Of a stretch of DNA of 64,000 bases, positions 2,724 through 57,173 are shown piece after piece. Origin of the DNA: Candidatus Omnitrophica bacterium UBA6249 (GTDB lineage Bacteria > Omnitrophota > Gorgyraeia > Gygaellales > Profunditerraquicolaceae); the NCBI GenBank assembly GCA_002441305.1, contig DJVT01000005.1, positions 11,704-75,703 of the forward strand, in the 5' to 3' direction. Position 1 is the first letter of the stretch. Each line of letters opens with the position of its first letter. Below the pieces are notes generated by a model. It was not told the origin of the DNA. It saw nothing but the letters and a program-made list of their open reading frames with translations, and made no database searches. Both the position numbers and the translations under genes were made by a program.

Positions 2724-5437
2724 CTACTGCTCTCCAAAAGTATCCTCCCGTTAAAATATGGATATTCCCCGGCGGACAACTTTTCCTTCCCCGCCTTCAG
2801 GCATTGCAACATCCTGCCTCTATGATAAAGATCGGAATTAAGCAGGTTCACCTGCCATTCTTCCCCCATGCCGTCTGGGGCAATCCCGATCTCCGGGAAA
2901 GCTTTTCCTGCGCAAGAATCCGGGGCCAAAATTGGGTATAAACCGCTTTTATTTATTCCGGCCGAAAAAATAACCTGCCAATCATCGTCTATATCTCCGG
3001 TAAAATCCGGCAAGACGCCTTCGTTCCCCGCGGAGGACCATTTATCATAAAATTCAGAAAGCATGATATTTGTCTGAAGGCGGTCTACTTCTAACCCCTC
3101 TTCTACTATCATGGCTATGGCGAGCTTTATGCTATGCTCATTTTCCAGGCTGATCCGCCATTCCTGCCTGAGCGGCAGGTGTATCCATTTAAAAGAAATA
3201 GCTGCCTCCCCTGCGCGGATTCCGGATTCACAAACTGCGCATGTAACGGAATCATGCCACTTGCCTCTTGAGCGTAAAGAAGTATACAATCCCAACCCTT
3301 TAGTTATCTCTCTTCCCATCCAATATATCCTGCAAGTATTGTTATCCAATTGAAACTCTAAGTTGCCGTTCTTAAGTACAGGTTTTGATTGAATAGGGAG
3401 ATATTTTTCTCTCTCACAGGACCTTAACCAGCCCATAAACAAATCGTGCCGTCCGGGAGAAACCCTGGTATTCGCTTCAGGGTCAATTTTGTATATACGC
3501 AGCTCCCTCGCCGTAGATAAAATGTCAGTATTAAAAAGCTTGAAAAAGTTATTCAGGGCCTTGCCGAAACCGGCAGCAACGCAAAGTTCCGGATTCGCAC
3601 TGTATAATCTGATTTCTCCCGAGGAAATGCATTTTTGAAGCACGTCCTCATACGAATCTGAAAACTCCGCCGGGAAAAAACCTTGCCCGGTGTCCGTACG
3701 ATAAGCATCAAAAACGGGAGAGAAATTGAACTTCATGCAAGACTGTTCGATATCTATCTCTTTGAAAACATCGATGCCTACCTTCCAGAAAATAGTGCCT
3801 TCAGGGCCGATCTCAAAACACCACTCCTGGACAACCGGCAAACCTTTCCATTCTCCTCTGGCAACCAATTGATTCCCATTTCTCTTCGCCAAAGTCCAAT
3901 GCGCAGTTCTCGAAGAATAAACATTCCCTGCCATGCTCATCTGCACGGTAAGATTACCGCCTTTGGTTAACGGGTAATCTTTATAATAAAACATACCCTG
4001 CCCCTGGGTAAACTTGAACCTCAGATTTCCGTCTGTTACTACAGACCCGTTTTGCAACTTATGCAAATACCCGTTCAAATCCGGAGTATTTATTATAATC
4101 CTGCCGGAAAAATACCCGAACTTGCTGCCCATATCCTCGGTATAATTTTGCAGCCATTTTCTATAATATTGTAAAACCCTGCAACTAGATAAATAATCCC
4201 CGTTGAATAATTTAAACCCGCTTGCTGGATGTATTTTTTCTTGCTCTATTACAAAAGATGGAACTTGCTCTCCAAGAGAAAATACCCCCGTACACGCTGA
4301 AAAGTTGTCATCATCCATAACAACATGCCAAGCGTTATCCTTACTGCCGATTTCCGGAAAAACCCCCTGTTTCTGCTCAGTACACCATTGACTGTATTCA
4401 TCGGTTAACATTGCATTCAAACATCCATCCTGGATCTGCAGGGGTTCCCGGGAATCCATGACTATCTCCAGCGATATCGCATTGTCCTCCGATATCCACG
4501 CCTTAAGCAGCTGAGAGCAGTTTAATTGATGGAATTTACCGGCGGCTTCAATCTGCCCTCCCTCGCTCACAGAAACTTCCCAGTCCGCCTGAAAAGAATT
4601 GTACCACCGGTCAGTAAGAAAAAACGAGGCGTAAACCCCGGAACCCGGGGTCAACAATCTGCCCCGCCAGTTAACAAAAAGGCGCCCGTTGTTGAAAACA
4701 AGCTGAATTTCCCCTTTTTCCGATATTCCAATCCCTTTTTTAGTACCGACTGTCTGGGTATACAACGCTACAACATCGTCGGTCAATCCGTCCTTGATCA
4801 GTCTCCCTTCTTTAAGCAAAAGCGTTCTCCCGCAGATTCTTTTAAGCATATTCATGTCATGGAGCACAAAAACAATGGTTTTCCCGGAGCTCTTCAGCTC
4901 AAATATCTTTTTTATGCATTTTTTCTGGAAGAATTCGTCGCCTACAGCCAAGGTGTCATCGATAACGAATATCTCCGGATCAACATGGACAGCTACGGAA
5001 AAAGCAAGCCGTACGAACATCCCCTGAGAATAACATTTTACCGGAGCATCCATGAATTTTCCGATTTCCGCGAAATCAACGACTTGCTGGAATTTTTCCT
5101 GCGCCTGGCTCGCGTTTAATCCAAAAAGCTCAAACTGCAAAAAAACATTTTCCCTCCCCGTGAGCTCCATTTGAAAACCCGCGCCTAACTCCAGCAGCCC
5201 GGATACGCTCCCTGAAACGCATATTTGACCACGGTCCGGCTTTAGCATGCCGGTAATCAGTTTTAAAACGGTGGATTTCCCGGAACCGTTTTCTCCGATT
5301 ATCCCCGTTATCTCCCCGCGCTCCAAGGCAAAACTGACTCCTCTCACGGCCCAAAAATTCTCCCAGGCAGTCTTTCCCGGAGAGGCAAACTTGATGCGAT
5401 ACATCTCCCAAACGTCTTTAAATTCGATTACGGGCAT
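2720..5437 (-). CDS. polysaccharide/O-antigen-type ABC exporter ATP-binding protein (Wzt/TagH-like) with ~650-aa C-terminal triple-repeat extension
   Basis: Walker A GENGSGKST, signature YSQGMFVRLAF, Walker B IFVIDDTLAVGD, H-loop VLHD. Residues ~240-905 form three related ~225-aa modules. 4-nt overlap with the downstream gene. Confidence 0.85.
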   Translation of the reverse strand: MPVIEFKDVWEMYRIKFASPGKTAWENFWAVRGVSFALERGEITGIIGENGSGKSTVLKLITGMLKPDRGQICVSGSVSGLLELGAGFQMELTGRENVFLQFELFGLNASQAQEKFQQVVDFAEIGKFMDAPVKCYSQGMFVRLAFSVAVHVDPEIFVIDDTLAVGDEFFQKKCIKKIFELKSSGKTIVFVLHDMNMLKRICGRTLLLKEGRLIKDGLTDDVVALYTQTVGTKKGIGISEKGEIQLVFNNGRLFVNWRGRLLTPGSGVYASFFLTDRWYNSFQADWEVSVSEGGQIEAAGKFHQLNCSQLLKAWISEDNAISLEIVMDSREPLQIQDGCLNAMLTDEYSQWCTEQKQGVFPEIGSKDNAWHVVMDDDNFSACTGVFSLGEQVPSFVIEQEKIHPASGFKLFNGDYLSSCRVLQYYRKWLQNYTEDMGSKFGYFSGRIIINTPDLNGYLHKLQNGSVVTDGNLRFKFTQGQGMFYYKDYPLTKGGNLTVQMSMAGNVYSSRTAHWTLAKRNGNQLVARGEWKGLPVVQEWCFEIGPEGTIFWKVGIDVFKEIDIEQSCMKFNFSPVFDAYRTDTGQGFFPAEFSDSYEDVLQKCISSGEIRLYSANPELCVAAGFGKALNNFFKLFNTDILSTARELRIYKIDPEANTRVSPGRHDLFMGWLRSCEREKYLPIQSKPVLKNGNLEFQLDNNTCRIYWMGREITKGLGLYTSLRSRGKWHDSVTCAVCESGIRAGEAAISFKWIHLPLRQEWRISLENEHSIKLAIAMIVEEGLEVDRLQTNIMLSEFYDKWSSAGNEGVLPDFTGDIDDDWQVIFSAGINKSGLYPILAPDSCAGKAFPEIGIAPDGMGEEWQVNLLNSDLYHRGRMLQCLKAGKEKLSAGEYPYFNGRILLESSR

Positions 5438-6238
5438 CTAAATCCTTTTTAACACTTCATTCTCGCATTTAACCGACACCAACATGCCGCAGAACAGGCT
5501 GAAAATGCTCCATAGCGCAGCCTTACACAACATTCCCGGATCCGGGGCCTTCGCCCAAAAAAATATGTCTTGATAGCAAACAACGAAAGAGGAAAACGGG
5601 TTGAGGTCAAAAACCCATCGGAATTTACCGGGGACCATGCCGATAGTGTAAAAAACGGGAGTCACCCAAAACCAAAACATTAGCACTGTCCCTATCAATT
5701 GCTCCAGGTCCCGGAAGAGGATATTGATTACACTAAACAATACAGCCATCCCGGAAGTAAAAACAAGCGTCAGCAGGAATAATGCCGGCAAATAAATAAA
5801 CAACGGGATAGTCTTGGGACTGCGTATAATAAAAATAGGGCACACTATGCACCAGCTGACCAGGAAATTCATAAAGTGCGACAACACTACCCCCAGAGGC
5901 AGGACCTCCTTGGGCAGGCCGAACTGATGCAAAACGCCTCTTTGCGTCAACAAGGAAGGAGACGCTTCGCACAGGGTTCCGGAAAAAAACATCCAAGGCA
6001 AAATTCCCGCAAGGACAAAAAAACCGAAATCTTTGATCTCCGCTTTAAACACCGCAGTAAAAACGAAAGTTATCGCCAGCATTATCAAAACCGGATTTAC
6101 CGCCACCCAGAATACCCCTAAGAAAGAACCGGCATAACCGGCCTTGAATTGCTTCAGCCCCATACCCCATAAGGCACGGCGAAAATTATAAATCTTTTTC
6201 AGCTTCTCTCCTGCAGATCCCAAAATATATTTATCCAT
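5438..6238 (-). CDS. ABC-2 type polysaccharide exporter permease (Wzm/TagG-like)
   Basis: 266 aa with about 6 hydrophobic helices. N-terminus ..RRALWGMGLKQFKAGYAGSFLGVFW is typical of the ABC-2 family. It abuts the ATPase gene with no gap. Confidence 0.8.
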   Translation of the reverse strand: MDKYILGSAGEKLKKIYNFRRALWGMGLKQFKAGYAGSFLGVFWVAVNPVLIMLAITFVFTAVFKAEIKDFGFFVLAGILPWMFFSGTLCEASPSLLTQRGVLHQFGLPKEVLPLGVVLSHFMNFLVSWCIVCPIFIIRSPKTIPLFIYLPALFLLTLVFTSGMAVLFSVINILFRDLEQLIGTVLMFWFWVTPVFYTIGMVPGKFRWVFDLNPFSSFVVCYQDIFFWAKAPDPGMLCKAALWSIFSLFCGMLVSVKCENEVLKRI

Positions 6239-10021: not shown

Positions 10022-11176
10022 CTAAGACAATAAATCTGAATAAAAACTGCTTGTTTCTTTCACCATCCGGTTAGGAGAGTACTCGTTGAAATCCAAAGAG
10101 GCGTTAGCCGATGCGGCGATACTTTTTCTCAGGGAACCGCTGGCTAAAAGTTTCTCCAGAGGCTCCATAAAAGCGGTGATATCCCCCGCTTTAACCAAGT
10201 ACCCCGTTTCGCCATTTTTGACGATATCCCTTACCCCTCCCGTATCGGAAACGACTACCGGGACAAAAGAAGCTATCGCTTCAAGTACGGCAATCGGCAG
10301 CCCTTCCCACAATGAGGTTAATACAAAAACATCAAAAGAAGAAATAACCTCCGGTATATCCCTTCTCCACCCGGTAAGGATAACCTGCCGCTCCAAACCA
10401 AGTTTTTTTATCAGAGAACGCAGGCTCTCCCTCATTTCTCCGTCTCCCACCAAAACAAATTTTGCTCCCGGGAAAACCTTTACGGCAACTGCGGCCAATC
10501 TTATAAAATCCAGCGGCGCCTTCTGAGGCTTAAAACAGGCAATCATGCCGATAACCAGAGTTGAAGGCGGGATGCCGTATATTCTTCTCAACGAATACCC
10601 CGCACGCCGAACGGGAAATTCCGAAGAATCCAAAGCATAACGTATTATGCGATATTTCCCGGGAGTGCCGATTCTTTTTTGAAGAGCTGTCTCCCTGTCA
10701 TGCCGGGAAACCACTATTATCCCATCGGACCAAAAAGCACAGATTGTCTCCAGGAACCGGTAAAGAAGATGTGCCGGAAAGAACTGGTGATCGTGAAAAC
10801 TCCAGCCGTGCACAGTATGCAAAATCGCCTTAACCCCGGTAATCCTGGCTGCTGCCCTTCCTAGAATGCCGGCTTTAGAGCTATGCGTATGCACTATATC
10901 TATCTTATTATGCTTTATAAACCGGCATATAAAAACCAGGGCGAGGAGGTCCTCTACCGGCCGAACAGGCCTTTCCAAGGGCTTGCAGCGTATCAGAGTT
11001 AACCCGGGAATCCGTGCTGCCTCGTCAATCAACAACCCTTCTGCAGCGGTGATGAGAAACGGGTTGAATCTGTCTTTATCCAGCCCGCGGATTAATTCCA
11101 ATAGCTGCTTCTGGGCCCCTCCCAGCTCCAATTTCGTAATCACATACAGGATATTAACTTTCCCGCGAGGTGGCAT
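10022..11176 (-). CDS. glycosyltransferase, GT-B fold (family 1/GT4)
   Basis: N-terminus ILYVITKLELGGAQ. The C-terminal EGLPIAVLEAIASFVPVVVSDTGG motif is the E(x7)E signature of retaining GT4 enzymes. Confidence 0.8.
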   Translation of the reverse strand: MPPRGKVNILYVITKLELGGAQKQLLELIRGLDKDRFNPFLITAAEGLLIDEAARIPGLTLIRCKPLERPVRPVEDLLALVFICRFIKHNKIDIVHTHSSKAGILGRAAARITGVKAILHTVHGWSFHDHQFFPAHLLYRFLETICAFWSDGIIVVSRHDRETALQKRIGTPGKYRIIRYALDSSEFPVRRAGYSLRRIYGIPPSTLVIGMIACFKPQKAPLDFIRLAAVAVKVFPGAKFVLVGDGEMRESLRSLIKKLGLERQVILTGWRRDIPEVISSFDVFVLTSLWEGLPIAVLEAIASFVPVVVSDTGGVRDIVKNGETGYLVKAGDITAFMEPLEKLLASGSLRKSIAASANASLDFNEYSPNRMVKETSSFYSDLLS

Positions 11177-28304: not shown

Positions 28305-29075
28305 TTACCAAACCAGCTCTTCTCCCGAAAAAACCGGCCCTTCTTTACAAACCCTTTTATATCCGTTTTTCGTATTCACCACGCAGCCTAAACAGGCCCC
28401 GATACCACAGGCCATATGCTCTTCAAGGGAAAGCTGGCTCCCGATACTATTATCGCGCGCCATATTGGCGACTGCTTTAAGCATAGGATCAGGGCCGCAG
28501 GCAAATATTTGTGAAAATCCGCCCTGTCCGAGGCAGGACTCCAGCAAGCCGGTCACCTTGCCCTTAAATCCTGCGGAGCCGTCATCCGTAGCTATCTTCA
28601 CGGAACAACCCGCGTCCTTGAACTCCCTGAGACAAACAACCTGCGCCTTTGTCCTTGCGCCGATAAGCACCAGGGGCTCAATCGTTTTTAACCGCTTGGC
28701 CAAAAAAACCAGCGGGGCAACGCCCATCCCCCCGGCAACCAGAACAATCCTGTTTTTTTTATTCAGCCCGTCGCAGGCGAAACCATTTCCCAATGGCCCG
28801 ATAACATCCAGGAGACTCCCGCGCGCCCTTTCCGAAAGCATGCGCGTACCTCTGCCCACTGTTTCATAAAACAGGCTTATCCCCGCCTTATGCGCATCAT
28901 GAATGCTTATCGGCCTCCTCAACAACGGCTCCGCCCCCTCACCCACTCTGATTTCTACAAACTGACCGGGGCAGGCCTTTCCGGCTATCTCTGCGCATTC
29001 AAGCCTTAAGAGCCAATAATTATTTTTTACCCTCTCATTGGAGACTATTTTAGCTTTTAGCTGTGTTATTGCCAT
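28305..29075 (-). CDS. pyrK: dihydroorotate dehydrogenase electron-transfer subunit (FAD/2Fe-2S)
   Basis: RRPISI FAD motif, VAGGMGVAP NAD-fold, and C-terminal CGIGACLGC..C 2Fe-2S ligands. Confidence 0.85.
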   Translation of the reverse strand: MAITQLKAKIVSNERVKNNYWLLRLECAEIAGKACPGQFVEIRVGEGAEPLLRRPISIHDAHKAGISLFYETVGRGTRMLSERARGSLLDVIGPLGNGFACDGLNKKNRIVLVAGGMGVAPLVFLAKRLKTIEPLVLIGARTKAQVVCLREFKDAGCSVKIATDDGSAGFKGKVTGLLESCLGQGGFSQIFACGPDPMLKAVANMARDNSIGSQLSLEEHMACGIGACLGCVVNTKNGYKRVCKEGPVFSGEELVW

Positions 29076-55047: not shown

Positions 55048-55122
55048 GGCGACGTAGCCAAGTGGTAAGGCAGTTGTCTGCAAAACAACTATTCAGCGGT
55101 TCAATTCCGCTCGTCGCCTCCA
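55048..55122 (+). tRNA. tRNA-Cys (GCA), CCA encoded
   Basis: Acceptor GGCGACG/CGTCGCC, anticodon arm GTTGT-CTGCAAA-ACAAC, T-arm AGCGG-TTCAATT-CCGCT. Confidence 0.9.
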
Positions 55123-55129
55123 TCATTAA

Positions 55130-55212
55130 GGGCAAGTGGTGGAATGGCATACACGACAGACTTAAAATCTGTTGGCCGCAAGGTCGTAAGGGTTCGACTC
55201 CCTTCTTGCCCA
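55130..55212 (+). tRNA. tRNA-Leu (TAA), long variable arm
   Basis: Acceptor GGGCAAG/CTTGCCC, anticodon loop CTTAAAA, variable arm GGCCGCAAGGTCG, T-arm AGGGT..TCCCT region. Confidence 0.85.
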
Positions 55213-55265
55213 GTATATATCTCCGCAGGCAAAAGGGAGATAATTCCAAGAAGTTGATATTGTAA

Positions 55266-55359
55266 GGGCTCATAGCTCAGCCCCTGCAAAAGCCGCAGGG
55301 GCTCCTCGGGATATCAAATATCCCTCGTCGTTGGGAAAAGAGGATTTCGCTATGAGCCG
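55266..55359 (+). ncRNA. structured RNA element beginning with an exact copy of the first 15 nt of the downstream tRNA-Val
   Basis: GGGCTCATAGCTCAG (55266-55280) is identical to 55374-55388. A 10-bp closing helix pairs GGCTCATAGC (55267-76) with GCTATGAGCC (55349-58). Inner hairpins are CCCCTGC/GCAGGGG (55281-55301) and GGGATAT/ATATCCC (55308-55324). It does not fold as a tRNA. Confidence 0.5.
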
Positions 55360-55373
55360 GCACTGAAATAATC

Positions 55374-55447
55374 GGGCTCATAGCTCAGTTGGTTAGAGCG
55401 TTGCGTTGACATCGCAAAGGTCAGTGGTTCAAGTCCACTTGGGCCCA
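55374..55447 (+). tRNA. tRNA-Val (GAC), CCA not encoded
   Basis: Acceptor GGGCTCA/TGGGCCC, D-arm GCTCAGTTGGTTAGAGC, anticodon arm TTGCG-TTGACAT-CGCAA, T-arm AGTGG-TTCAAGT-CCACT. Confidence 0.9.
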
Positions 55448-55454
55448 TTTAAAA

Positions 55455-57173
55455 ATGGACATATCTATTTTAAGACATTCCTGTTCGCATATTATGGCCG
55501 AGGCGGTGAAGAGGCTTTGGCCGGAGGTAAAACTGGCTATCGGCCCGGCTATCGAAGACGGGTTTTATTACGATTTTGATAAGAAAGATCCGTTCAGCAG
55601 CGATGATTTGTTAAAGATTGAGCAGGAGATGCAAAAGATTGTCTCCGCCGATGAACCGTTTGTGCGCCAGGAGATGGGGAAAGAAGAGGCGATCAAGCTT
55701 TTTGAGGGGATGAAGGAGGATTACAAGGTTGAATTGATAAGGGGCCTGCCGAATGAAAAGGTTTCCGTTTATAATACCGGCAAAGATTTCCTTGATCTTT
55801 GCCGCGGGCCGCACGTTAATTCGACCGGAGAAATAAAGTTCTTCAAGCTATTGTCTGTTGCCGGGGCGTATTGGCACGGCATTGAGACCAACCCCATGCT
55901 GCAGAGGATATACGGGACTTGCTTCAATACTAAAGGCGAGCTGGAAGAATATCTGAATTCTTTGGAAGAGGCGAAACTGCGCGACCACAGAAAACTGGGG
56001 CCGCAGCTGGGGTTGTTCGATATTTACCATGAGCAAGCCGGCGCAGGGCTGGTTTTTTATCATCCCAAGGGCGCCCTCCTGCGGACAATTATCGAGGATT
56101 ACGAGAAAAGAGAGCATCTGAAGCGGGGATACCAGCTGGTGATTACCCCGCATATCATGGATGCATCTTTATGGAAGACCAGCGGACATTATGATTATTA
56201 TAAAGAGAATATGTATTTTTCCTCGGAGGGAGACAGGGAGATTGTATTGAAGCCCATGAATTGCCCGGGGCATATCCTGATTTACAAATCAAAGAGCCGC
56301 AGTTACCGGGACCTTCCCATAAGGTTCTTTGAACTGGGCACGGTTTATCGAAAGGAAAAAGCCGGAGTCTTACACGGGCTTCTGCGCGTGAGGGGCTTTA
56401 CCCAGGACGATGCGCATATATTTTGTCTTCCCGAACAACTGCGGCAGGAGATAAGCGGCATCATTGATTTTGTATTTGAAACAATGAAAGTTTTCGGTTT
56501 CGAACACTGGGGAATAGAATTAAGCACGCGTCCGGAAAAATATATCGGTTCGGACGAAGACTGGCAGAAAGCAACAGCAGCGCTTGAGGATTCGTTGAAA
56601 GAAAAAGGGTTACCCTATGAAATTAACCATGGGGACGGCGCTTTTTACGGACCCAAGATCGACATAAAGTTAAAGGACGCCCTTAAGCGGACCTGGCAGT
56701 GCGCCACTATCCAGTGCGATTTTGCTTTGCCTAAAAGGTTCGATCTGGCATACGTGGATGAGGATGGCAGAGAAAAGCAGCCTATTATGCTGCACAGGGT
56801 TTTGTTGGGGAGCCTGGAGCGTTTTATCGGCGCGCTCATTGAACATTATAAAGGGGAGCTCCCTTTATGGTTAAGCCCTACCCAGGTTTTACTGATCCCG
56901 ATAAAAGAAACGGTCTTGTCTTATGCCGGACAGGTAAAAGAGTTTTTGGAAAAGAACCAGATACGGACGGATATGGATGCGCGCAATGAGACTCTCGATA
57001 AGAGGATACGTAACGCGGAGCTGAACAAGATTCCTTATTGTTTGATTTTGGGCGAGCGGGAAGCCAAACAGGGTACGGTCAGCGTGCGTAAGAAGGGCAT
57101 GGGGGACCAGGGGGCGGTAACGAAGGATAAATTTGCGGAAGACCTGTTAAATCAAATTAAGCAGTATAAATAG
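55455..57173 (+). CDS. thrS: threonine--tRNA ligase lacking the N-terminal TGS domain
   Basis: It starts at the editing (N2) domain: ILRHSCSHIMAEAVKRLWP..AIGPAIEDGFYYDF. It has the class II core (FRxE-like FELGTVYRKE, GFTQDDAHIF) and an anticodon-binding C-terminus. Confidence 0.9.
   Translation: MDISILRHSCSHIMAEAVKRLWPEVKLAIGPAIEDGFYYDFDKKDPFSSDDLLKIEQEMQKIVSADEPFVRQEMGKEEAIKLFEGMKEDYKVELIRGLPNEKVSVYNTGKDFLDLCRGPHVNSTGEIKFFKLLSVAGAYWHGIETNPMLQRIYGTCFNTKGELEEYLNSLEEAKLRDHRKLGPQLGLFDIYHEQAGAGLVFYHPKGALLRTIIEDYEKREHLKRGYQLVITPHIMDASLWKTSGHYDYYKENMYFSSEGDREIVLKPMNCPGHILIYKSKSRSYRDLPIRFFELGTVYRKEKAGVLHGLLRVRGFTQDDAHIFCLPEQLRQEISGIIDFVFETMKVFGFEHWGIELSTRPEKYIGSDEDWQKATAALEDSLKEKGLPYEINHGDGAFYGPKIDIKLKDALKRTWQCATIQCDFALPKRFDLAYVDEDGREKQPIMLHRVLLGSLERFIGALIEHYKGELPLWLSPTQVLLIPIKETVLSYAGQVKEFLEKNQIRTDMDARNETLDKRIRNAELNKIPYCLILGEREAKQGTVSVRKKGMGDQGAVTKDKFAEDLLNQIKQYK

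Follow-up and report, generated by a model that had tools for sequence, protein, structure and literature searches.

The Cys-Leu-Val-thrS locus and its spacer element

The DNA analysed here, referred to as the window, is a 64,000-nt stretch of contig DJVT01000005.1 from Candidatus Omnitrophica bacterium UBA6249, a member of the Omnitrophota. It carries yicC, gmk, a coaC-like flavoprotein gene, tRNA-Cys, tRNA-Leu(TAA), tRNA-Val(GAC), thrS and infC in this order, and a small structured element lies between tRNA-Leu and tRNA-Val. This element (55266-55373) is a conserved and previously undescribed spacer element of the Omnitrophota; it is non-coding and derived from tRNA-Val, and corresponds to no known RNA gene. 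Its parts and the neighbouring features are collected in Table 1.

The element begins with an exact copy of the first 15 nt of tRNA-Val. This sequence, GGGCTCATAGCTCAG, is found at only two sites in the window (55266-55280 and 55374-55388), even when two mismatches are allowed, against an expectation of 0.11. Between the two copies, the antisense segment GCTATGAGCC (55349-55358) is the exact reverse complement of both 55267-55276 and 55375-55384, corresponding to tRNA positions 2-11; its matches number 3 against 0.09 expected, a count reached in none of 100 shuffles. Folding of 55213-55373 with RNAfold predicted a closed three-way structure (-57 kcal/mol, z = -3.95, with none of 200 shuffles as stable), in which the upstream copy, hereafter the stub, and the antisense form stem P1 around hairpins P2 and P3. 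A previous reading of these letters without database searches (the sequence-only reading) had pointed out the duplication, the complementary segment and a ~93-nt three-way structure with the same inner hairpins, and all three were reproduced, the last as a prediction.

The stub comprises the acceptor 5' strand, U8 and A9, the D-stem 5' strand, and A14 and G15, and TTGG at 55331-55334, beyond the two hairpins, corresponds to the remainder of the tRNA-Val D loop (positions 16-19). These are the only tRNA-like parts of 55213-55373, for which neither ARAGORN nor Rfam made a tRNA call, even at E <= 10. At the gathering threshold and at E <= 10 alike, Rfam returned no spacer match, including riboswitches, T-box, small ribozymes, tRNA-like families and group I introns, and within the tRNA cluster it found the three tRNAs only; the sequence-only reading, too, had recognised no known RNA family in the element. 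Scans of 55200-55460 for sigma-70 promoters and intrinsic terminators gave none, and the 93-nt insert between the 15-nt repeats holds no open reading frame (ORF). Junction J2/3 is predicted to form a further pairing, P4, which would also be possible in L044, L115 and L149 and would contain a U-U mismatch in most copies (labels of this kind denote the loci and contigs compared).

Several other candidates were considered and set aside. Sigma-54-like GGCAC and TTGACA boxes, seen by eye in the linkers, have the wrong spacing and are not conserved. An ATG in the antisense is preceded by a run resembling a Shine-Dalgarno sequence (GGTG/GAGGA) and opens a frame encoding just M-S-R-H-stop; it is missing in L044, so it is regarded as a by-product of complementing CAT. 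A spliced tRNA intron does not fit, since hairpin-bearing copies are always truncated and adjoin an intact tRNA. A weak match to the covariance model of the element described below, at 28751-28828 on the minus strand of the window (15.9 bits, E 0.3), is probably due to chance.

Table 1. Coordinates of the element, its parts and the adjacent genes in the window.
Feature	Position	Strand	Basis or remark
tRNA-Cys(GCA)	55048..55122	+	ARAGORN, Rfam; opens the conserved Cys-Leu-Val-thrS cluster
tRNA-Leu(TAA)	55130..55212	+	ARAGORN, Rfam, synteny
Small spacer hairpin, 7 bp, upstream of the element	55218..55242	+	RNAfold
5' stub	55266..55280	+	Exact tRNA-Val positions 1-15; positions 2-11 are the P1 5' strand
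P2 hairpin, CCCCTGC-AAAAGCC-GCAGGGG	55281..55301	+	Inserted right after G15; stems 55281-55287/55295-55301
J2/3, CTCCTC	55302..55307	+	RNAfold: predicted pairing with AGAGG at 55339-55343 (P4)
P3 hairpin, GGGATAT-CAA-ATATCCC	55308..55324	+	Stems 55308-55314/55318-55324
J3/1, conserved unpaired stretch TCGTCGTTGGGAAAAGAGGATTTC	55325..55348	+	Family consensus GTCnTTGGt..aaaagGtg..TTCGC
Antisense GCTATGAGCC, P1 3' strand	55349..55358	+	Complements positions 2-11 of the stub and of the real tRNA
A-rich linker, new 5' leader of tRNA-Val	55359..55373	+	Loosely conserved, G(G)CA..AAAAATT-like
tRNA-Val(GAC), genuine	55374..55447	+	ARAGORN; Rfam tRNA 71.6 bits
thrS (threonyl-tRNA synthetase, ThrRS, without TGS domain), then infC	55455..57173	+	Context only

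Distribution and covariation among relatives

A ThrRS-based scan of species-representative genomes yielded 80 loci, all from Candidatus Omnitrophota or mislabelled relatives, with 62-87% ThrRS identity. The Cys-Leu-Val-thrS synteny is kept in most of them, but the Leu-Val spacer is anywhere from 3 to 516 nt long. Long spacers with the element are present in L004 (two copies), L014, L023 (two), L024 (one short and one full) and L040, while L002 (83% ThrRS identity) retains an internally deleted and mutated remnant that has GAGGATTTCGCTAT in common with the window. A covariance model built from seven copies additionally detected the element in L044 (Ca. Velamenicoccus archaeovorus LiM, where two copies precede tRNA-Val), L039 and L066, and a pattern scan of metagenomes, filtered with the model and setting no requirement for a downstream tRNA, added ~15 more contigs. 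The total is 30 copies (28 distinct) from 26 sources. Recurrence of the same arrangement in so many related genomes shows that it is not due to chance. No Omnitrophota tRNA-leader element or rRNA insertion was found in the literature searched, including the main Omnitrophota genomics paper.

Wherever the contig allows it to be seen, each copy stands directly 5' of its cognate tRNA, in the same orientation, and begins with the first 15 nt of that tRNA. For most copies the downstream gene is tRNA-Val(GAC); copies in rRNA spacers at five distinct loci precede tRNA-Ile(GAT) and start with GGGCCCATAGCTCAG, and looser analogues precede tRNA-Ala (L100, L124), tRNA-Arg (L137) and tRNA-Cys (L040, L058). 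Among 267 tRNAs examined, 15-nt duplications of the 5' end (with at most one mismatch) were exclusively upstream, with none downstream. In L080 another partial tRNA-like 5' fragment, GGGGACCCATAGCGCAGTTGGTTAGCGCGTCCGCCAAAGGCGGAAGGTCAG, lies directly upstream of tRNA-Val (~56 nt before it) and is a different kind of tRNA remnant.

The distribution is patchy. The element is carried by 8 of the 66 species-level loci with enough upstream sequence, and the Leu-Val spacers of L022 and L050 (the closest relatives, with 87% ThrRS identity) and of L042 are empty, measuring 15-22 nt compared to 161 nt in the window. Tandem copies are identical in L115 and L100 and diverged in L004, and the array in L023 combines one copy of each of the two subtypes defined below, type A and type B, the stub of its type A copy matching a different tRNA-Val allele. 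The only copy that is always intact is the one contiguous with the tRNA body, and the upstream-most copies decay (L002, L024a, L023a, L044 copy 1). A leader, ATTATTGTGCTC, is found before the tRNA in L001 and L042 and before the stub in L002, indicating that the original leader stayed with the upstream copy.

Alignment of the 30 copies gave 93.9% paired cells compared to 82.3% in shuffles, and a covariation score of 0.309 compared to 0.116, with none of 500 shuffles as high and slid registers reaching at most 0.056. Changes on both sides were observed at eleven pairs, including all six modelled pairs of P3 and 4 of the 9 of P2. P1 is mostly invariant because it is built from conserved tRNA sequence. 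It nevertheless shows compensation: C5:G in all five tRNA-Ile loci (antisense TGGGC), and G5:C together with G7:C in L044 (antisense CGC). When copies were folded individually, P1, P2 and P3 were obtained in most. The element is thus conserved in relatives with compensatory changes, the opposite of the outcome that the sequence-only reading had named as refuting it. P1 is imperfect in four copies. L144 and L023a have two mismatches each, the stub following a GGGCGCT-type tRNA while the antisense stays GCTATGAGC, and in both the antisense region holds an extra AAGCG able to pair with positions 4-8. L004b and L040 also have two mismatches, with the antisense GCTATTCGC.

A tRNA frame carrying a dispersed double-hairpin repeat

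The stub tracks the 5' end of the local tRNA, reading GGGCCCA in the tRNA-Ile copies, GGGCGCG in L044 and GGGCGCT in L144. The D-loop remainder after the hairpins is likewise cognate-specific: TTGGT in all Val and Ile copies, CTGGGA in L100 (Ala) and GTGGTAA in L040 (Cys), and L160 agrees with its tRNA at 10/10 of positions 16-25. Together, the stub and the cognate D-loop remainder indicate that the element takes its frame from the 5' part of a tRNA, into which the hairpin pair is inserted between positions 15 and 16.

Two subtypes were distinguished. In type A, which includes the copy in the window, the P2 stem is YCCCNGC, followed by the junction CTCCTC, a P3 stem GGGAT..ATCCC and the stretch TCGTTGGT. 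In type B, P2 (CCCCGAC..GTCGGGG) is followed directly by P3 (TCCCGAC..GTCGGGA). Both share the tRNA frame and the 3' motif GGTGTTCGCTATGAGC, and the type A covariance model detects type B at E-values of 1e-7 to 1e-10. The P2 stems in the window fit the consensus of a dispersed hairpin repeat, YCCCNNC/GNNGGGR.

In the type B relatives, P2 and P3 together form a double-hairpin repeat (twice TCCCGNC..GNCGGGR) that is dispersed. Its copies were traced by the type B junction CGGG[GA]TCCCG, L100 having at least 5 sites within 6.8 kb and L124 at least 8 within 10.8 kb. The repeat lies in the 16S gene of L124 (~3735-3800) and twice in the 23S gene of L100 (plus strand, ~1398 and ~1858; 23S positions ~1231-1478 and ~1720-1802), both of the latter being insertions relative to the 23S gene of L124, and it is repeatedly present in rRNA spacers. 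In the ThrRS-centred genome loci (~565 kb), the junction adjoins tRNA-Val only, and viral contigs gave no double-hairpin match. The double-hairpin repeat colonises Omnitrophota stable-RNA operons (rRNA genes, rRNA spacers, and tRNA stubs to either side of intact tRNA genes), and the element in the window is a diverged type A version. The sequence-only reading had judged the insert too small to be an element; this does not hold, as the hairpin pair is a dispersed repeat in its type B relatives.

The repeat also occurs in 3' stubs of tRNA-Val, consisting of the variable loop, T arm and acceptor 3' strand, where it sits in the T loop after GGTTC (L021 2899-2990; L038 ~1817-1935; L039 ~1561-1690; L056 ~268-400). 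Each of these stubs begins 7-13 nt past an intact tRNA-Val, and they have no antisense. The tRNA-Val allele behind the L021 stub is not that of the resident gene. In L124 (6431-6673, 6746-6900), an intact tRNA-Ala stands between an upstream 5' half-stub (positions 1-35, with an insertion in the D loop) and a downstream 3' half-stub with the double hairpin in the anticodon loop; CTGAAATT follows both the tRNA-Ala and its 3' stub. GNRA loops at the tips of the double hairpins number 14 in the sense of the operon and 1 in antisense, a bias that points to selection acting on the transcript or, at the least, on one of the strands.

No target-site duplication or common flank motif of the repeat could be defined, its borders looking flush and its flanks being heterogeneous, although the 15-nt direct repeat could be read as a target-site duplication. 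No cognate transposase was identified, and none was sought genome-wide. The metagenomic rRNA operon of L124 carries, in addition, a group I intron in its 23S gene (10235-10441; Rfam RF00028, 64.9 bits). Its 16S gene (3586-5980) suggests a large insertion near the 3' end, since the Rfam SSU match stops at 5227 and the 16S 3' end motif GGATCACCTCCTTTCT is located near 5960-5980.

The tRNA cluster is also a hotspot in which LAGLIDADG genes, GIY-YIG genes and duplications of tRNA 3' ends accumulate. A freestanding LAGLIDADG gene of ~220 aa (Pfam LAGLIDADG_3, E 1.7e-12) fills the Cys-Leu spacer in L003, L019, L023, L049 and L075, and is also present in L072 and upstream of tRNA-Leu in L115, L149 and L094. 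Small GIY-YIG ORFs of 80-110 aa (Pfam E 1e-16 to 1e-19) occur in tRNA spacers, namely the Leu-Val spacer of L040 and after tRNA-Val in L045, L054, L078, L079 and L072. In L078, L079 and L072 a second copy of the last 12 nt of tRNA-Val lies 384-405 nt downstream, an att-type-like duplication around the GIY-YIG ORF, and in L047 a 3'-end repeat is found 141 nt downstream. No consistent association was seen between the element and LAGLIDADG or GIY-YIG genes sharing its spacers. A short motif, TTTCGCTA or TTTCGCCAT, which resembles GGATTTCGCTATGAGCC of the element, stands just 3' of unrelated spacer hairpins (e.g. GTTGGAGTTTCGCTAGAT, GCAGGATTTCGCCAT) in the spacers upstream of the element in L002, L004 and L040, and after tRNA-Val in L006.

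Downstream of the cluster, the ThrRS of the window contains the tRNA_SAD, class II core and anticodon-binding domains of Pfam only, the N-terminal TGS domain being absent. The start of thrS at 55455, 7 nt past the end of tRNA-Val as had been noted (TTTAAAAATG, 55448-55457), is not preceded by a Shine-Dalgarno sequence, and the thrS mRNA may therefore be nearly leaderless once the tRNA 3' end is processed.

Interpretation and biological meaning

We favour, with a probability of about 0.5, the interpretation of the element as a tRNA-derived stub into whose D loop hairpins were inserted, and whose antisense hides the spare 5' strand. The element would be co-transcribed with the Cys-Leu-Val tRNA operon, and its stub, P2, P3 and antisense would emerge ahead of the real tRNA, so that P1 would form first and lock the spare acceptor and D-stem 5' strand. 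Left free, this strand could rival the genuine one in pairing with the 3' half of the tRNA; P1 would thus act as an insulator that keeps the stub harmless, while RNase P would cut at the real tRNA 5' end and the element would be discarded as spacer. The 3' stubs, which are transcribed after the tRNA and have no antisense, fit this logic. One possible origin of a stub beside an intact gene is insertion into one copy of a transient tandem tRNA duplication, followed by decay. The antisense may have been made, and later 'corrected', by template switching around the palindrome without selection. A 15-nt direct repeat would make deletion and tandem duplication easy, which accounts for the patchy distribution and for copy numbers of 0, 1 or 2.

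Several observations weigh against this interpretation. When the 3' part of the element was aligned locally to the tRNA body, z was 0.4-2 in most copies, which is not significant; only L160 (z 4.1), L123 and L120 are exceptions. By eye, L120 and L160 suggested that the 3' part stems from the tRNA variable loop, T arm and acceptor 3' strand; this derivation was not retained, most copies being non-significant compared to shuffles. The 64-kb window has the hairpin repeat at the element alone, with no convincing further copy, and its P3 differs from the canonical second hairpin, so the assignment to the repeat rests on the homology between types A and B. The P1 mismatches in L144, L023a, L004b and L040 show that the pairing is not strictly required. 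Stem mismatches in the element alignment have no strand bias (18 G:U, 20 A:C), so that RNA-level selection is not demonstrated for type A. In addition, the unpaired motif TCGTTGGT..GGTGTTCGCTA is conserved across lineages at 66-87% ThrRS identity; insulation alone needs no such conservation, which hints at an extra function or a recognition site. This unexplained motif keeps functional-RNA alternatives alive.

The alternative put forward in the sequence-only reading was an attenuator-style switch acting on tRNA maturation or on thrS. In such a bistable arrangement the antisense would toggle between two partners, the upstream copy in a productive state, in which the tRNA folds and is released by RNase P, and the real tRNA 5' end in a non-productive one, gating tRNA-Val, and tRNA-Ile in rRNA operons, in response to some signal. 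The alternative pairings do exist in silico. Over 55266-55447, the P1 three-way structure plus a normal tRNA amounts to -75.1 kcal/mol (-48.1 + -27.0), and the predicted minimum free energy fold, at -76.2 kcal/mol, places the antisense on the real tRNA 5' end; the difference between the two folds ranges from -2.7 to +5.1 kcal/mol over 23 loci. This near-equality, the compensatory changes that keep P1 complementary, the fixed orientation and distance to the tRNA, and an unpaired motif that could be a ligand or protein site would all suit a switch. However, similar energies follow automatically from the duplication of the 5' strand, and are not evidence of a designed switch. Nor is the cloverleaf necessarily prevented, as had been proposed, since the acceptor stem can form with the stub in place of the real 5' strand. 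The fold model leaves out tRNA tertiary structure and the order of transcription, the latter favouring P1. The region 55200-55460 contains no terminator, Shine-Dalgarno-sequestering structure or other expression platform and no known riboswitch, no sensor is identifiable, and in L144, L004b and L040 the antisense has mismatches with either of its partners. Absence from the closest relatives and from 58 of the 66 related species, decay in L002 and variable copy number argue against an essential attenuator, and a link to thrS is unlikely because the element also precedes tRNA-Ile inside rRNA operons. Nothing specifically supports the switch, which we regard as improbable; the element is probably not a regulator, and a self-neutralising genomic hitchhiker is the more likely description.

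Somewhat less doubtful than the switch, though still unlikely, is an exapted RNA: the three-way junction would be excised by tRNA-processing enzymes and have a role of its own, possibly as operon punctuation or an RNase P entry site, as a decoy for a tRNA-binding protein or toxin, or as a small RNA sponge. Sequence and structure are kept over deep divergence with covariation, the position between tRNAs would have both ends cut by tRNA-processing enzymes, and stub identity to the local tRNA is kept even where P1 is not (L144); sense-strand GNRA tetraloops and tandem G-A motifs in type B P3 indicate structure at the RNA level. Yet positions 1-2 are usually unpaired, a discriminator or CCA-like 3' end, T arm and anticodon-like loop are lacking, and processing sites are already supplied by the flanking tRNAs. 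Patchy distribution and decay do not suit a needed function, and no evidence points to a target or partner. We give a similarly low weight to the broader proposal of a phylum-specific leader RNA mimicking the tRNA 5' end, with TCGTTGGT..GGTGTTCGCTA as functional site, which would act either as a kinetic gate on tRNA-Val and tRNA-Ile maturation, formed by the competing stub, antisense and real 5' end, or as a released tRNA-derived three-way-junction RNA with its own partner. More remote still is a scar of integration or homing, in which a mobile element or freestanding homing-endonuclease cassette would have entered the 5' region of tRNA-Val, provided it with a new 5' end and later been cut to ~93 nt. 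The 15-nt repeat has the size of an att core, the leader ATTATTGTGCTC is displaced in L002 relative to L001 and L042, and the cluster is the hotspot described above. However, the same short architecture and junction sequences recur in more than 25 lineages and with two tRNA identities, which speaks for a propagated unit and not for independent deletion remnants. The duplicated end is the 5' end, no integrase, other recombinase or endonuclease lies between the repeats in any of the 28 copies, and a scar would leave the internal antisense and the covarying hairpins unexplained; the earlier dismissal of a classical integrase att scar is upheld. Chance similarity or misassembly of a tRNA-rich region is hardly credible: the identical tandem copies in L115 and L100 could in principle be assembly errors, but the repeat and its complement are far above chance expectation, and the element recurs in genomes and metagenomes that are independent of one another, where it shows substitutions and compensatory changes.

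The closest parallels to the repeat are the double-hairpin or repetitive hairpin-forming elements in the mitochondria of fungi and sponges, which are short and non-coding, fold into one or two hairpins, reside in spacers and rRNA genes, are reported not to be removed from transcripts, and have conserved stems, variable loops and presence/absence polymorphism (PMC2800124), together with the GC clusters of yeast mitochondria (PMC4478555). Like them, the Omnitrophota TCCCGNC..GNCGGGR repeat is dispersed, polymorphic and present in rRNA genes and spacers. It differs in being bacterial and, in the sampled loci, in occurring only in stable-RNA operons, and the copy in the window is a diverged type A version within a tRNA-derived stub that has an antisense to its own 5' strand. 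Bacterial palindromic repeats and miniature inverted-repeat transposable elements (REP/BIME, ERIC, Correia and the Rickettsia palindromic elements) are small, structured and co-transcribed, and lie in conserved loci with strain-variable copy number. For the Omnitrophota element, terminal inverted repeats or a target-site duplication could not be defined and no transposase was identified, and its 'inverted repeat' (P1) is host tRNA sequence that changes with the host tRNA.

In classical attL/attR remnants of tRNA genes, the 3' part is duplicated and kilobases including an integrase are enclosed. The element resembles them in that DNA inserted beside an intact tRNA is bordered by a directly repeated tRNA end, and differs in the duplication of the 5' 15 nt, the 93-nt insert and the conservation of the unit across lineages. 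With T-box and leader attenuators it shares one strand with two alternative partners of similar stability; it lacks a terminator or anti-terminator, specifier, T-box sequence, Rfam match and sensing domain, and its distribution does not fit a conserved regulator. As in the intervening sequences of bacterial rRNA, the hairpin repeat is inserted, at the DNA level, in 23S and 16S loops and is sporadic among relatives, whereas the feature in the window lies in a tRNA spacer and not in rRNA. The 3'ETS-leuZ sponge, from the glyW-cysT-leuZ operon of E. coli, is a by-product of a tRNA operon with an activity of its own. It is a pure analogy, suggesting that a by-product of a Cys-Leu operon could act; there is no similarity in sequence or structure and no known target.

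Hairpin repeats and tRNA remnants are thus known in kind, and it is their combination that is new to us: conservation, several tRNA identities, an antisense within the element itself, and a double-hairpin repeat that is bacterial and limited to stable-RNA operons. If the favoured interpretation is correct, the Omnitrophota carry a counterpart of the mitochondrial double-hairpin elements that is specific to stable-RNA operons and leaves module-bearing tRNA stubs next to intact tRNA genes. This would account for the variability of the spacers (3 to more than 500 nt) within an otherwise conserved Cys-Leu-Val-thrS cluster, and would be a warning for the annotation of pseudo-tRNA 5' ends and rRNA insertions. 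The element would be a natural insertion that limits its own damage via a closed fold, and its built-in antisense and near-degenerate folds make it well suited to testing how RNA folds during transcription and how RNase P selects its site. Should the element instead gate tRNA maturation, it would represent a new type of RNA control, in which the target is a tRNA and not an mRNA.

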